From Candidatus Omnitrophota bacterium (GTDB lineage Bacteria; Omnitrophota; Gorgyraeia; Zapsychrales; Zapsychraceae), in assembly GCA_022703565.1 (NCBI GenBank), contig JAKLDK010000001.1, forward strand, positions 8,017-72,016: a stretch of DNA of 64,000 bases, in the 5' to 3' direction. The position numbers were made by a program, and so were the translations under genes. The notes beneath the pieces are model-generated. The model saw nothing but the letters and a program-made list of their open reading frames with translations. It was not told where the DNA came from and searched no databases. This document shows, in pieces, positions 9,909 through 63,821 of this stretch (position 1 is its first letter; the number at the start of each line of letters is the position of its first letter).

Positions 9909-9941
9909 CCCCGCAGCTTTATTGGGCTCGCGGGGTTTTTT
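9909..9941 (+). terminator. Intrinsic terminator / attenuator in the pyr leader
   Basis: CCCCGCAGC...GCTCGCGGGG stem followed by TTTTTT, about 90 nt upstream of the pyrR ATG. Confidence 0.6.
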
Positions 9942-10032
9942 GTTGAGAACGCAGTTTACGAAAATACAATGAACGTAAGCTAAGGCTTGAAATAACTCCG
10001 CAAAGCGGGGTTAAAATAACGGGAGGAATAAA

Positions 10033-35150: not shown

Positions 35151-35567
35151 ATGAAGTCATATCGGGAAGAGTTAGTTTTTGAGACACCTCATCGGCGGGA
35201 TTATATTAATATTACCTCTCAGGTTGAGAAGGCTTTACAAAAAAGTAAAATCAAAGAAGGTTTATGTTTGGTCAACGCGATGCACATAACGGCGAGTGTT
35301 TATATTAATGATGATGAAGACGGCTTGATTCATGATTATGATGAATGGCTAGAGAAATTAGCCCCGCACGAGCCGGTGTCAAAATACCGGCATAATACCG
35401 GAGAAGACAATGCCGATGCTCATATGAAAAGGCAGGTTATGGGGCGGGAAGTTGTGGTGGCGATAACCGACGGAAAACTTGACTTCGGGCCGTGGGAGCA
35501 GATATTTTATGGTGAATTCGACGGACGGAGGAAAAAGAGGGTTCTAATTAAGATTATTGGCGAATAG
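35151..35567 (+). CDS. yjbQ: YjbQ-family protein (UPF0047; secondary thiamine-phosphate synthase-like)
   Basis: 138 aa with the [15 protein letters not shown] and [11 protein letters not shown] motifs. Confidence 0.8.
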
Positions 35568-35577
35568 ATTGTGGTGG

Positions 35578-35607
35578 TCCCGACGCTCGCTTGTGCTTCG
35601 GTCGGGA
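35578..35607 (+). terminator. Possible terminator hairpin after yjbQ
   Basis: TCCCGAC, 16-nt loop, GTCGGGA; the downstream U-tract is weak. Confidence 0.35.
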
Positions 35608-35664
35608 TTAATTCGGCCAAATGATTTATGTTCGTTACCGCTCCATAAATCATGGCCTCATTAA

Positions 35665-35733
35665 CAGATATTTTACGGTGAATTTGACGGCCGCCGCAAG
35701 AAACGGGTATTAATAAAAATTATCGGAGAATAA
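35665..35733 (+). pseudogene. Relic of the 3' end of a second yjbQ allele (22 codons plus stop, no start)
   Basis: Encodes [22 protein letters not shown], identical to the intact yjbQ C-terminus 166 nt upstream, yet 15 of 23 codons differ and every change is synonymous. It is preceded by an in-frame TAA. Confidence 0.75.
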
Positions 35734-35758: not shown

Positions 35759-36664
35759 ATGAGTATAATTGCGTTGGGAACAATTGCTATTGATAACATA
35801 AAAGTTGATTCTATCGACAAAAGAAATCTTTTAGGCGGGTCAGCCGCGCACTTTGCGATGAGCGCTAGATTTTTTACTAAAGTAAGTTTAGCCGGTATTG
35901 TTGGGACGGATTTTCCAAAAGAACATTTTAAGTTATTTGCGGATAAAAAGATTGATATCTCGGCGGTAGTCAGAAAAGAAGGTAAAACGTTTTGCTGGCA
36001 TGGCGAATATAAAAAAGGTGATTATAATCACGCAATTACGTTAAAGACCGAGCTGGGGGTTATTACCGAGTACAAGCCCAAATTAACTTTAGTGCAAAAA
36101 AATATGCCAAATGTTTTTTTAGCGAATCTGGACCCGGAAAGCCAGTTAGCTTTTTTAAGCGAAATGAAAAATCCGAAAATGGTCGGGTTAGACAGCATGA
36201 ATTTGTGGATTGCCAATAACCGTCCGACTCTGATGAAATTAATCAAAAAAGTTGATATATTTTTTGTTAACGACGGAGAAGCTTGCCAATTGACCAATGA
36301 GCACAATTGCATAAAAGCTATAAATGCATTAAGAAAGCTGGGGCCTAAATATATTATTCTTAAAAAAGGCGAACATGGTGTTTTGGTTTGTGGGAATAAA
36401 ACTTTATTTTCTTTTCCGGCCTATCATGTCGAGCGGGTTATTGACCCAACCGGAGCCGGAGATACTTTTGCCGGTGGAGTAATGGGGTATTTAAGTAAAG
36501 CCGGGAAGATAAATGAAAAAATATTAAAAGAAGCAACTCTTTATGCGACCACGTTCTCTTCTTTTAATGTTGAAGGCTTCGGAATGGAACGGACAGCACG
36601 GTTGAGCCCAAAGGACGTTAAGGCTCGTCTAAACAAATTGATAAAATTTATTTCGCCTAAATAA
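35759..36664 (+). CDS. PfkB-family carbohydrate/nucleoside kinase
   Basis: DPTGAGDTFAGGVMGYL PfkB signature 2 and an N-terminal GG motif; 301 aa. Confidence 0.8.
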   Translation: MSIIALGTIAIDNIKVDSIDKRNLLGGSAAHFAMSARFFTKVSLAGIVGTDFPKEHFKLFADKKIDISAVVRKEGKTFCWHGEYKKGDYNHAITLKTELGVITEYKPKLTLVQKNMPNVFLANLDPESQLAFLSEMKNPKMVGLDSMNLWIANNRPTLMKLIKKVDIFFVNDGEACQLTNEHNCIKAINALRKLGPKYIILKKGEHGVLVCGNKTLFSFPAYHVERVIDPTGAGDTFAGGVMGYLSKAGKINEKILKEATLYATTFSSFNVEGFGMERTARLSPKDVKARLNKLIKFISPK

Positions 36665-53688: not shown

Positions 53689-56600
53689 ATGTTTAAGAAA
53701 GTAATTTTATTGGTTTTAGGGTTAGTTTTACTTTTATCGGCCAATGTTTTTGCCCAAAACATGTTTTCAAATGCTGATTTCTCTAACGGCGTAAATGGTT
53801 GGTCAACAGTTGGATATCCGTTTTATGCTATTGTCAGAGCGCCAAATTATGCTGCGGAAAACACAATAACAACAGTTTCTGACCGCGATTATTTCGCAGA
53901 AATTTATCAGGTAATTACTCCTTTTACCGCCGGCGATCCGGTTTATATGACCGCTGAAATAAAAACACAGCTAGATCCAGGTTCAAGTGCTAGCGGTGGA
54001 ATTATCGTTGAATTTCTAAATGCTTCAAATAATGTTTTAAATACAATTACAACATCTGTTGTTGGCAATACGAATTGGAATACAGTTTATGTTACCGGAA
54101 CAGCTCCGGCGGGAACTGTTAAAATCAGAGCTGGTGCTTTTGTTTTTGCGGCGGAAGATGATAGTGCTGCTTTAAACGGAAAAGTTAGTGTTGATAATTT
54201 ATTTATTGATAATATTCAAGCTCCGGGCGGCGGGCTTATTACAAACCCAGGTTTTGAATCACAAATAAGCGGATGGACAACAGGCGTTGGCTCGTATCCC
54301 TTTATTGCTTCAACCGCACAAACTCATTCCGGAGTTTATTCTGCATATGATGCTGTTAATAGTGTGAGTGGAGATTATTGGGGATTTATTTATCAAACTC
54401 CGACGGTTCCAGTGGGCGGTACGATTTATGCTTCAGCGTGGGGAAAAACCGAGATTAGCCCTCTTTCATCAGCAGTTGGCGGATTAATAGTTCAATTTTT
54501 AAATTCAAGCGGAGTTCTAATTTCAAAATTAGAATCAAAAATTGGCGGAAATACTGATTGGCATCAGCTTTATGTTTCAGGAACAGTGCCTGTTGGTACC
54601 GTAACAATTAAAGTTGGTGGATATCTTTGGGCCGCAAATGGTGATAGCGCCGCTCTTGGCGGTAAAGTATATATTGATGATTTCGCGGTCTCAACAACTC
54701 CAATTCCTCCGCCGCAGCAACCGCAGGAATTAATTAATTCTGATTTTGAAAATGGAGTTAATGATTGGGCTTGGATTTACCGTCCTTTTGTGGCAAGCAC
54801 AACTGCGCATACTGGAATTTATTCAGCAAAACATAATATTGGCAACACGACGGGCCCGAATGATTATTTAGCCGAAATTTATCAGGAAATTCCTTTTACT
54901 GCCGGAAATGTTGCTTATTTGACCGGCTGGGTTAAGACAAATATAAATCCTGCAAGGACTGCGGTAGGTGGTATTAAGGTTCAATTTGTTGATGCTGCTG
55001 GTACGTTAATTGGTGCGGCTTCTCAGGCTGATCGTGACGGAATCAATGATTGGACGCTTCTTTACGTAAATGCTGTAGCTCCGACTGGAACAGCTAAGGT
55101 TAGAATTAGTGCCTTTGCTTGGGCGGATAACAATCAAGGCACAGTTAACGGGGATGTTTTTATAGACGGCCTGGCATTCTCCAATACTCCGCCGAGTTCA
55201 CTGCTTCTAAATTCAAGCTTTGAAAGCGATATGGCAGGATGGACACAAGATGCAACCGGATATCCGATGACAGCTGTAACCGAAGAACATCGTACTGGCG
55301 CAAAATCAGCAAAGACAACGATTCAGCTTCCCGGGGGAAGTTCTGATTTCTGGTCGAGAATCTATCAGGAATTTACAATTGTTCCGGGACAAGCTTTATA
55401 CGCAACAGCTTGGGCGAAGACCGCGATTAATCCGTCTTCGACGGGAACTGCTGGCTTGAAAATAGAATTCTTTAACGGTACTACTCCGACGGGATCGGTT
55501 ACTTCAAATACTGTTGGTGGGCAAGCCGGATGGACATATCTTTATGCTTTTGCAACCGCACCAGCTGGAACAACAAAGGCTCGCATCAGCCCTTTTGTTA
55601 GTTGCCCTCGCGCAACAGCAAATTTAGGCGGAAATGTTTATTTTGATGATGTTTATGGTTCATTCGACCAGCTTCCTCCCCCGGCATTTAGGACAGCTTT
55701 GATCAACGCTAGTTTTGATGACGGAAGTGGGCTAGGAGGATGGACGGACCTTTATGGTTTACCGACGACGCTAGATTCTATAAATTCTTATTCAATTCCA
55801 TATTCGGCAAAAAAGACATTCGCGCAAATTCCGGATCAGGATTATTACACTACTGTCTATCAAGATATTTACTATAATGCAAATGGTACGCCATTTCCGA
55901 CGGCAAGAAATGTGTATTTAGCTGCTTATATTAAGACGGCAATTAATCCTTTGGCAAATGCTTCGGGTGGAATTGCGCTTGAATATTTTGATGAAAGCGG
56001 CGAAGCTTACACAATAGATACTGATCAGGTTAGTGCAAACAATGATTGGCGGCAGCTTTATGTTTCCGGAACGATTCCAGCGGGGGCAACCAAAGTGAGA
56101 GTTTTGGGATTTGCGTTTGCTCCGTTAGGTGAAACTTTAGCTGATAACGGAATTGTTAATTTTGATAATTTTAACTTTTCCTATAACTACATTCCGGAAC
56201 AAGTTCAAACATCGTTGTTGAATGTTGGATTTGAAAACGGATTGAATGATTGGGATCAGTTAAATCGTTTAGCCGGAATTACACAAGCTCCGGTTCATGG
56301 AGGGAACTATTCTTCATATTTTGACATTCAGGTTGATTTAGTAGATCCTCAAGATTATTATGGAACATTGTCACAAGATATTGCTGTTTTACCTGGGAAG
56401 ATAGTAGAAGCCAGCGCTTGGGTTAGTACGGATATTTACCCGCTTACAAATGCTCAAGCCGGTATAAAATTACAATTTATTGACGGCAATGGACAGGCAA
56501 TTGGTCCGGAATATACAAACGGAATTGGCGGCAATACCGGGTGGACTCAACTAAGTTTGGTCCGAACTGCTCCGGCACAAACAGCTAAAGTTCGGTATAT

Positions 56601-57135
56601 TTTATTCTTGTATGCGGAAGGCCTTTCGGCAATTAACGGAGATAGGGCTTACTATGATGACGCTTCTTTGCTTATCCGTAATGCTCCTGGCCCAGGATGC
56701 TTTTTAGCTGAAACTCCGATTACCTTATCAGATGGCTCAACTAAGCCTATTGAAGAAATAAAAATAGGCGATATGGTTATGGCTTACAATGAAGAGACAA
56801 AGACATTAGAAACTAATGAAGTAACAACAATTTTCAATCATGACAAGGAAGATGTTTATTTGCTGGTCAACGGTACTCTTAAGGTTACTCCGGTTCACCG
56901 TGTTTTAACTAAAGGCGAGTGGAAGGAAATCGGTACATTGGCTGTAGGCGATACCTTAACCGATATGAAAGGCAATGATGTTCTTATTGCTTCAATAGAA
57001 AAAGTTAACGAAAAGGTCGATATCTATAATTTTGAAGTATCGCCTCTTCATACCTACATAGCTGGCGGATTTATAGTTCACAATAGAAAACTAAACTATA
57101 CAATAGCTTTTGGCGATGGGAATGGAACTCGTTAA
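53689..57135 (+). CDS. Secreted protein with six tandem CBM4/9-like carbohydrate-binding modules and a C-terminal Hint (bacterial intein-like) domain
   Basis: Signal peptide. Six ~165-aa repeats each open with N-x-x-F-E/S-x-G-x-x-G/D-W and close with a V-x-h-D-D/N-h motif. The final 145 aa are CFLAETPITLSDG...VTPVHRVL...GGFIVHN followed by a 16-aa tail: Cys1, a TxxH-like block, and terminal His-Asn with no +1 nucleophile. Confidence 0.75.
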   Translation: MFKKVILLVLGLVLLLSANVFAQNMFSNADFSNGVNGWSTVGYPFYAIVRAPNYAAENTITTVSDRDYFAEIYQVITPFTAGDPVYMTAEIKTQLDPGSSASGGIIVEFLNASNNVLNTITTSVVGNTNWNTVYVTGTAPAGTVKIRAGAFVFAAEDDSAALNGKVSVDNLFIDNIQAPGGGLITNPGFESQISGWTTGVGSYPFIASTAQTHSGVYSAYDAVNSVSGDYWGFIYQTPTVPVGGTIYASAWGKTEISPLSSAVGGLIVQFLNSSGVLISKLESKIGGNTDWHQLYVSGTVPVGTVTIKVGGYLWAANGDSAALGGKVYIDDFAVSTTPIPPPQQPQELINSDFENGVNDWAWIYRPFVASTTAHTGIYSAKHNIGNTTGPNDYLAEIYQEIPFTAGNVAYLTGWVKTNINPARTAVGGIKVQFVDAAGTLIGAASQADRDGINDWTLLYVNAVAPTGTAKVRISAFAWADNNQGTVNGDVFIDGLAFSNTPPSSLLLNSSFESDMAGWTQDATGYPMTAVTEEHRTGAKSAKTTIQLPGGSSDFWSRIYQEFTIVPGQALYATAWAKTAINPSSTGTAGLKIEFFNGTTPTGSVTSNTVGGQAGWTYLYAFATAPAGTTKARISPFVSCPRATANLGGNVYFDDVYGSFDQLPPPAFRTALINASFDDGSGLGGWTDLYGLPTTLDSINSYSIPYSAKKTFAQIPDQDYYTTVYQDIYYNANGTPFPTARNVYLAAYIKTAINPLANASGGIALEYFDESGEAYTIDTDQVSANNDWRQLYVSGTIPAGATKVRVLGFAFAPLGETLADNGIVNFDNFNFSYNYIPEQVQTSLLNVGFENGLNDWDQLNRLAGITQAPVHGGNYSSYFDIQVDLVDPQDYYGTLSQDIAVLPGKIVEASAWVSTDIYPLTNAQAGIKLQFIDGNGQAIGPEYTNGIGGNTGWTQLSLVRTAPAQTAKVRYILFLYAEGLSAINGDRAYYDDASLLIRNAPGPGCFLAETPITLSDGSTKPIEEIKIGDMVMAYNEETKTLETNEVTTIFNHDKEDVYLLVNGTLKVTPVHRVLTKGEWKEIGTLAVGDTLTDMKGNDVLIASIEKVNEKVDIYNFEVSPLHTYIAGGFIVHNRKLNYTIAFGDGNGTR

Positions 57136-62972: not shown

Positions 62973-63821
62973 ATGAAGAAAATTCTAACGGTCCTGGCAT
63001 TGTGTTTATTTGTCGCGACTATGGCTCAAGCCGCGGTTAATTTCGGAGATTATCGCTCAGAGACATTAACCACAAAAGCTTGGGGAGCTTTAGCCCAAGG
63101 TGACACACAAGCCGTGCTTGCTTACACCAACAAATGCCTTGAATTATATGCCGAGCAAGCAAAAAAAATGCAAGATAGCCTTACCGAATATCCTGCCGGA
63201 GAAAAAGATAAAATTTTTAGTTTTTGGGCCTTAAATGATGTGGCTACGTCTCTTTTTGTCCAGGGAGAGGCTTTCCGTCGAGCGAACATGAAGAATGAAG
63301 CTGTAGAAGCCTTCAAGAAAATTGTAAACGAATATTCTTACGGACAAACTTGGGATACAAATGGATGGTTTTGGAAGCCGGCTGAAGCAGCGAAAGAAAA
63401 GTTAGCGATGCTGGAATCAGGCGTTTTCTTAGATTTCGGCGATTATACTTCGTCTTTTATTACTGGCCAAGCCTGGAAAGCTTTAGAAGAAAATAAATTG
63501 GATGCAGTATTATCTTATACTAATAAGGTAATTGAACTTTATGCCCCAAAAGCAAAAGAAATGCAAGCGTCTTTGACCGAATATCCTTGGCAATCCCGCG
63601 AGCAAATATTTAATTTTTGGGCATTGAATGATGTCGGCACATCTTATTTTATTCAAGGAAAAGCTTTTGATGCCGCTGGAAAAAAAGCAGAAGCAAAAAC
63701 TGCTTATCAAACGTTAATTGATAATTATTTTTACGCACAATGCTGGGATCCAAAAGGATGGTTCTGGAAGCCTGCAGAAGCAGCACAAGAAGCAATTGAC
63801 GCGATCGGCGAAGTTAAATAA
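62973..63821 (+). CDS. Secreted protein composed of two tandem copies of a ~125-aa TPR-like helical domain
   Basis: Signal peptide. The two repeats share YTNK(C/V), LTEYP, FWALNDV(A/G)TS, NY(S/F)Y(G/A)Q(T/C)WD and GWFWKPAEAA. A third copy is at the N-terminus of the upstream glycosidase. Confidence 0.6.
   Translation: MKKILTVLALCLFVATMAQAAVNFGDYRSETLTTKAWGALAQGDTQAVLAYTNKCLELYAEQAKKMQDSLTEYPAGEKDKIFSFWALNDVATSLFVQGEAFRRANMKNEAVEAFKKIVNEYSYGQTWDTNGWFWKPAEAAKEKLAMLESGVFLDFGDYTSSFITGQAWKALEENKLDAVLSYTNKVIELYAPKAKEMQASLTEYPWQSREQIFNFWALNDVGTSYFIQGKAFDAAGKKAEAKTAYQTLIDNYFYAQCWDPKGWFWKPAEAAQEAIDAIGEVK

Follow-up and report, generated by a model that had tools for sequence, protein, structure and literature searches.

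In Escherichia coli K-12 the gene icd continues into prophage e14, at the far end of which icdC, the displaced piece of the gene, is found (PMC13626634). At the e14 and phage 21 insertions the gene ends in codons carried by the element, which differ from the displaced codons mostly at synonymous positions, and when the two recombine a chimeric gene is restored (PMC13626634, with reference to Hill et al. 1989 and Campbell et al. 1992). Here we describe a gene-end duplicate of this known kind, left by a gene-restoring foreign insertion, at the 3′ end of yjbQ in a 64,000-nucleotide (nt) stretch of DNA, the window, from a Candidatus Omnitrophota bacterium (contig JAKLDK010000001.1, positions 8,017 to 72,016). 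As at icd, a direct repeat of the gene 3′ end flanks the insert, in this case 69 nt long with 16 silent differences, and empty sites occur in relatives (L162 for the window; L169, L170, L172 and L088-L090 for a second composite in locus L091). Unlike e14, which is about 15 kb long with its own integrase, the yjbQ insert is of some 166 nt and has no coding sequence beyond 22 restoring codons, and its non-coding part is a structured hairpin repeat unit. The short non-coding insert, the undescribed structured repeat and the recurrence in two distant lineages are what make this case unusual.

The 3′ end of a conserved gene is also the site occupied by cis-mobilizable elements (CIMEs), for example that at fda in Streptococcus thermophilus. 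These are flanked by att sites, lack a recombinase and are presumed to be mobilised in trans. Unlike the yjbQ module, CIMEs are kilobases long and visibly derived from a known integrative and conjugative element; in addition the yjbQ junctions differ between the two cases. A search of the literature on yjbQ as an attachment site and on repeats of Omnitrophota found nothing specific. The features of the locus are as follows.

35151-35567, + strand: yjbQ coding sequence (UPF0047 or 'secondary thiamine-phosphate synthase' family), 138 amino acids, from the list of open reading frames
35499-35567, + strand: copy 1, the translated yjbQ 3′ end, last 22 codons and TAG
35665-35733, + strand: the ghost, an untranslated second yjbQ 3′ end, 22 codons and TAA
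35499-35509 and 35665-35675, + strand: 11-nt block CAGATATTTTA, the same in both copies by codon-by-codon comparison and a candidate crossover site or core
35568-35575, + strand: 8-nt spacer ATTGTGGT from the yjbQ stop to hairpin 1
35576-35664, + strand: two-hairpin unit, 89 nt, from folding, a covariance model and the homologue in L091
35576-35609, + strand: hairpin 1 of the unit
35610-35614, + strand: linker AATTC
35615-35657, + strand: hairpin 2
35658-35664, + strand: tail TCATTAA
35734-35758, + strand: native-looking yjbQ-pfkB spacer with ribosome-binding site AGGAGAGG
35759-36664, + strand: pfkB

The product of yjbQ matches Pfam PF01894 with E=2.8e-38. An earlier sequence-only reading of the window had claimed that the last 22 codons and the stop recur 166 nt downstream with the same translation. 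This is confirmed, since both copies translate to the same 22 residues followed by a stop and a repeat search of the window finds the same pair on its own, as 68 nt at 78% identity with starts 166 nt apart. The count of 16 substitutions in 15 codons also stands, with the correction that the 15 comprise 14 sense codons and the stop itself (TAG versus TAA); there are no amino acid changes. The longest identity between the copies is CAGATATTTTA, the first mismatch falling at repeat nucleotide 12, and this block at the start of both copies is the only repeat that a search for att-like sequences, suggested in the same reading, brought to light. The tract of copy-1-type sequence is CAGATATTTTATGGTGAATTC. 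The ghost lacks a start codon (no in-frame ATG, GTG or TTG) and has an in-frame TAA immediately before it, both as described before; the TAA comes from the tail of the hairpin unit. The ghost also lies in the +1 frame relative to yjbQ, the intervening spacer being 97 nt. For these three reasons it falls outside any longer open reading frame, a possibility that the sequence-only reading had left standing. The pfkB gene begins 25 nt after the ghost stop.

Can the ghost be a duplicate that has simply decayed in place? In 200,000 simulations of 16 random substitutions not one came out all-synonymous, and the analytic chance of an all-silent outcome is 0.208^16, approximately 1.2e-11. Neutral decay of a recent duplicate is excluded by these values, in agreement with the earlier argument. 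By the Nei-Gojobori method the 14 synonymous sites are saturated, with 14 synonymous differences, and the 52 non-synonymous sites are free of replacement changes; the time for which the ghost has been silent therefore corresponds to a neutral divergence below about 6%. At 16/69, the copies are as far apart as yjbQ ends from different taxa commonly are (mean 17-19). Because the divergence is all-silent, saturated and of between-taxa size, we take the two ends, on their sequences, to be deeply diverged functional alleles from different lineages, long separated under purifying selection. YjbQ shows approximately 80% amino acid identity across phyla and the C-terminal 22 residues are nearly invariant, so any two alleles are expected to differ only silently there.

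We note that identities of 75-86% are observed between YjbQ of Omnitrophota and that of Planctomycetota, Chloroflexota, Desulfobacterota, Acidobacteriota and even archaeal bins (L002-L081), a level that would imply extreme constraint, frequent transfer, or both. A diversity-generating retroelement was considered as a source of the differences and rejected: A occurs at only four or six of the 16 differing positions, depending on the choice of template, all substitution types are represented, the amino acids are unchanged and the neighbourhood contains no reverse transcriptase gene. Translational bypass was also considered and rejected.

The same figures bear on whether the composite is real. 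The window derives from a metagenome, and a two-strain assembly chimera, or an in-situ tandem duplication followed by drift, might be proposed on that account. Drift of an in-situ duplicate is however excluded (p ~1e-11), and the 77% identity between the copies is far beyond strain-level variation. A separate JGI contig, Ga0116241_10001866, is identical to the window locus over 6417 bases, and the L091 composite is found in three assemblies of different sources (NCBI, Logan and ENA), two of which show 4 differences over 4810 nt. An artefact of either type is scarcely credible.

The closest syntenic genome to the window is GCA_015232535.1 (L162), in which the gene order aminotransferase-TPR-PilZ-yjbQ-pfkB-era-yjeF_N is common to both and the products of pfkB and yjbQ are 69% and 91% identical, respectively. 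No closer relative of the window organism, as judged by a PfkB identity above 69%, was present in the protein collection. Locus L162 has a single yjbQ end followed after 21 nt by pfkB and is thus an empty site. Since the gap to pfkB is similar in the two genomes, the extra material in the window is a 166-nt insertion. Bounded as it is by a direct repeat, this insertion may be taken as copy 1 with the spacer or, just as well, as the spacer with the ghost. The single end, together with the simulations, supports the previous suggestion that alleles diverged under purifying selection were joined here, either when foreign DNA recombined with the gene or through an element that brought its own restoring end. 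Relatives do not share both copies, as they would in the case of an ancient fixed feature. The alignment with related genomes recommended in the sequence-only reading provided the empty site, but the L162 orthologue is too diverged to tell which copy is ancestral.

The 97 nt between the copies consist of the 8-nt spacer and an intact 89-nt two-hairpin unit. The earlier description of a hairpin-bearing spacer of about 100 bp was right as to length; there are two hairpins, though, and they form an intact, covarying member of a family, not a leftover. The predicted fold of the window unit has an energy of -34.6 kcal/mol (z=-2.5). The unit is 79% identical to the homologous unit at positions 903-1012 of L091, and in hairpin 2 five of the 14 stem pairs differ between the two, all of them on both sides with pairing kept. 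Covariance models built from these units match the unit of the window at 102 and 83 bits, and they were used to find further units in L112, L139, L142/L144 and at a second site in the L091 contig (L165). L142/L144 carries three units, in the orientation - + +. The family alignment contains 7-8 distinct units, and about 8 are spread over roughly 0.37 Mb of PfkB-anchored loci. In it, 18 of the 20 pairs covary through double changes, and 97% of cells are paired compared with 31-46% when the partner is slid. Nine G.T pairs across the family against a single A.C show that only one strand carries the fold, whether RNA or single-stranded DNA. Conservation of sequence is seen in the AATTC linker, in a loop with the motif TTCG..GCTC and in the TCATTAA tail.

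Family members are also present in ordinary intergenic spacers and are not confined to the yjbQ end. Their tails abut or overlap gene borders, namely the pfkB stop (L142, L139), the ileS ATG (L142) and the purH GTG (L165). At L142:1031-1375, L139:3397-3513 and L165:10962-11052 units fill the whole intergenic spacer, and the start codons of ileS (L142) and purH (L165) follow hairpin 2 with no intervening Shine-Dalgarno sequence. The covariance model found no unit in 0.46 Mb of loci from other phyla. Rfam 15 at gathering score identified only two tRNAs in the whole window, and when relaxed to E<=10 on the region of the unit and on L091 gave nothing credible. Blastn detected no repeat of the spacer elsewhere in the window and, against phage and plasmid collections, only a 39-nt chance match in a Vibrio phage; scans of viral contigs with hairpin-motif patterns were empty save for one match, which is due to chance and fails against the covariance model. 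No target-site duplications were found around family members. We thus uncover a structured, covarying family of two-hairpin repeats that abuts start and stop codons and is without an Rfam entry.

The unit resembles repetitive extragenic palindromes (REPs), bacterial interspersed mosaic elements (BIMEs) and elements derived from insertion sequences of the IS200/IS605 type in being a short, strand-specific, imperfect palindrome in intergenic positions abutting stop or start codons. With these elements it further shares an occasional clustering in both orientations (L142), structure that is kept more than sequence, and short motifs flanking the foot of the hairpin. Unlike REPs it carries no GTAG/CGTC tag, and the copy number is low, with one clear copy in 64 kb. 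No gene for a Y1 transposase or a REP-associated tyrosine transposase was seen within the 64 kb of this genome examined. To our knowledge REPs do not carry copies of gene ends. Pairing of the AATTC linker with the tail, in the manner of the guide and cleavage site of IS608, was tried and rejected, the positions being inconsistent across members. Integron attC sites, of 60-140 nt, are likewise folded, strand-specific, conserved in structure, variable in sequence and packed tightly between open reading frames. This assignment was rejected because the R''/R' cores (RYYYAAC / GTTRRRY) are absent, the hairpins are two separate ones and the orientations in L142 are mixed.

The second composite occurs in Omnitrophica WOR_2 RIFCSPHIGHO2_02_FULL_52_10 (L091, L165 and L167), the PfkB of which is 58% identical to that of the window. 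Here a two-hairpin unit homologous to that of the window comes 8 nt after the yjbQ stop, and after it a nested insertion of 211 nt, a ghost of the yjbQ end and pfkB. The 8-nt spacer, CAGAGAAA, is of the same length as ATTGTGGT in the window and unrelated in sequence. The ghost is truncated at the 5′ side with two replacement changes at its border. Empty sites are found in relatives with PfkB identities to L091 of 95% (L169), 89% (L172), 88% (L170), 85% (L088/L089) and 84% (L090), in each of which a single yjbQ end lies 6-55 nt before pfkB. One further relative with 94% identity, for which gene calls only were used, also has a single yjbQ end and a gap of approximately 151 nt. The yjbQ gene is directly upstream of pfkB in about 37 loci from metagenomes and genomes, and among these junctions the hairpin unit is present at two, and these same two alone have a ghost (exact p = 1/666). 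Of the stem positions that vary freely, about a third have changed between the hairpin units of the two lineages, whilst the ghosts are nearly intact; the insertions are therefore independent and younger than the split of the units. This fits a module that keeps moving, displacing a fresh resident end with each insertion.

Over the last 14 codons the window and L091 ghosts show 7 nucleotide differences and no amino acid changes. This could be taken to mean that the ghost is retained by selection for some use, as a structured 5′ leader of pfkB, as a recombination arm for spread of the cassette or through translation after recoding. The silent differences are equally explained by recently displaced functional ends, and the in-frame TAA upstream, the missing start codon and the +1 frame speak against translation. 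The L091 ghost is moreover truncated, altered at its border and split from the unit by the nested insertion, and most relatives have no ghost. Selection for use is very improbable.

The yjbQ-pfkB spacer attracts other sequences. The nested insertion in L091 (L091:1011-1237, about 211 nt, with the hairpin unit on one side and the ghost on the other) lies between two direct copies of the 8-nt sequence AAATTTGA and has imperfect terminal inverted repeats, GCCTCTTTGGA and TCCAAAGAATC, and internal G- or C-rich palindromes; it looks like a miniature inverted-repeat transposable element. Between the L091 ghost and pfkB (L091:1284-1407) there are 121 nt. In L169, the relative at 95%, the corresponding distance is 13 nt; the surplus of ~105 nt in L091 makes up a long hairpin, GTTCATCCGTCTT...AAGACGGATGAAC, and counts as a third independent insertion at this place. 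Other palindromic repeats crowd the same spacer in further loci: L082:1998-2161 and L120:2360-2500 share motifs such as CTCGCAATGACACAA and GAAGCAATC, and long palindromes rich in GTAAG/CTTAC occur in L098, L106, L111, L113 and L119.

How might the composite have formed? With moderate confidence we favour the recombination of a small foreign module, a yjbQ end together with a hairpin unit, into the resident yjbQ 3′ end by a single crossover. The module would comprise a diverged yjbQ 3′ end (codon 117 to stop), the 8-nt spacer and the 89-nt two-hairpin unit. A single crossover in or near CAGATATTTTA would produce a Campbell-type insertion of about 166 nt, a geometry that we infer. Copy 1, brought by the module, would now complete the protein, and the resident end would have been shifted 166 nt downstream, still joined to the native spacer and pfkB, to be kept as the ghost. 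The insertion would be tolerated as yjbQ stays intact throughout, and the strong synonymous divergence of the repeats would guard the insert against deletion by recombination between them. The module may be mobile as a unit, presumably with the help of an enzyme encoded elsewhere.

That copy 1 and the hairpin unit are incoming and the ghost resident is a polarity we favour on mechanistic grounds and on the icd/icdC precedent. Copy 1 is preferred as the incoming end because a donor in which an intact yjbQ is followed at 8 nt by the unit would be viable, and one in which the unit is fused to codon 117 would not. The sequence that follows the ghost stop in L091, AACGAGTT, aligns with the starts of the native spacers of L170 (AAACGAG) and L169 (CGCGAGTT), and the 8 nt after the stop of L091 copy 1 do not align with them. 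This match fits a resident ghost, and would also be expected were the crossover at the 3′ edge of homology. A nearest-neighbour analysis of both copies against 108 yjbQ ends points to no clear donor or resident. Codon usage and GC content at third codon positions, the former proposed earlier as a check, proved uninformative as both copies are typical. L172 has 7 differences from each of the L091 copies.

The opposite polarity is a minority possibility of some weight. Here copy 1 is resident and the hairpin unit plus ghost came in, through a crossover at the 3′ homology edge or through homology-facilitated illegitimate recombination anchored in pfkB or downstream of it and joined at the tail of the unit. 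The direct repeat makes the two polarities structurally indistinguishable. L091 copy 1 differs from its nearest relative L169 at 9/69 positions, as the 89% nucleotide identity of pfkB predicts for background, and the ghost is further away (11/51); the ending ..GD* of L091 copy 1 is common to L088/L089, and a TGA microhomology can be read at the junction of tail and ghost in L091. Against this, such a donor would need the unit directly before yjbQ codons 117-138, which is non-viable unless the composite was already there; the native L170 end and the L091 ghost differ at only 2/42 positions; and in the icd/icdC precedent it is the displaced resident end that is distal. There are not enough informative sites for a decision between the two polarities.

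Several observations weigh against a mobile module with an incoming copy 1. The L162 end differs from copy 1 of the window at 12/69 positions and from the ghost at 10/69, values that are within noise of each other. Over the last 42 nt the L091 ghost is 2 differences from L170 and 8 from L169, and copy 1 is 5 and 7, respectively. These distances, like those to L172 and L088-L090, do not exceed noise either. The composite is known from only two lineages, and no circular or free form was seen. The insert contains no open reading frame beyond the 22 codons; neither in it nor close by is there a recombinase or transposase gene, and no recombinase gene occurs within +/-3 kb. Beside the other family members (L142, L139, L165 and L112) no ghosts of neighbouring genes were found. 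Nor is the unit multicopy in the window: with filters off, one further weak match is obtained, intergenic at 9939-10012 on the - strand (22.5 bits, E ~0.002), which may be a degenerate second copy or chance. Finally the window ghost begins at codon 117 and the L091 ghost near codon 122-123, about 17 nt further 3′, so the junction is not strictly site-specific unless L091 has lost those ~17 nt.

The L091 ghost start shares only TTTGA with the window. We observe that GGGAG precedes both insert boundaries (TGGGAG|CAG at 35493-35498 in the window; GGGGAG|TTTGA at L091:835-840). As a post-hoc hint, this might be a target pentanucleotide or reflect a sequence-directed single-strand mechanism.

Homology-facilitated illegitimate recombination on its own is similar in placing one junction in conserved homology and the other at short or no homology, and it can generate a partial duplication from diverged DNA. 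It does not, however, predict two independent events ending at the same unit tail, nor the perfect association of unit and ghost.

Partial copies of yjbQ are encountered elsewhere. At L171:3001-3549 a 132-nt tandem duplication of the ribosome-binding site and the first 38 codons leads to a YjbQ of 182 amino acids (P0020). The copies differ at 11/114 nt, eight differences being silent and three conservative, and there is no spacer element, so that L171 is a 5′-end counterpart of the window ghost. A search for yjbQ in viral contigs found one phage contig, L163:3881-6658 (IMG/VR UViG_3300010351_001608), which is phage-like with GP7 capsid and Mu-F-like genes. It has a complete yjbQ between two serine recombinase genes and an inverted fragment of codons 1-42 at the contig end, an arrangement that suggests an element which interrupts the yjbQ of its host and brings along a complete substitute. 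L004:3001-3927 (Omnitrophota HK-STAS-OMNI-4) repeats this pattern, in that after a full yjbQ come an HTH_3 gene on the opposite strand and inverted yjbQ codons 1-47 (68-70% identical), but without a recombinase in the stretch examined. Because such copies occur in L171, L163 and L004 besides the ghost, yjbQ looks like a recurrent landing pad for recombination or integration.

Might the window insert then be the relic of a large integrase-bearing element, a prophage or genomic island with a restoring end, from which nearly all has been deleted and 97 nt are left? The class is well known from e14 and phage 21 at icd, and L163, with the similar layout of L004, suggests that such elements do use yjbQ. 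Their site is nevertheless another one (codon 42-47) and the orientation is inverted. Two distant lineages keep the same complete unit at the same 8 nt from the stop with no other remains of an element, and the unit family is at home in ordinary intergenic spacers and not only at yjbQ. We judge a relic to be improbable.

With respect to the rest of the window, 55 of the 59 open reading frames of >=110 amino acids are on the + strand. Internal tandem repeats at the protein level are present in those at 53689-57132 (1148 amino acids) and 62973-63818 (282 amino acids).

Returning to the incoming module, a stronger and tentative proposal is that its ~170 nt constitute a complete non-coding, non-autonomous element that homes into the yjbQ 3′ end in Omnitrophota, the strand-specific hairpins and TCATTAA tail possibly serving as the site that a trans-acting recombinase, of the single-strand HUH type or of the tyrosine type, recognises and cleaves. 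Such an element, miniature and 'target-restoring', would if real belong to a previously undescribed kind. Replacement-end integration can work at ~170 nt without any gene, and annotation pipelines and island finders would never flag it. Should the module be autonomous in targeting, it would represent a natural minimal scarless insertion cassette. For a poorly sampled and uncultivated phylum the composite offers a clean marker of horizontal exchange.

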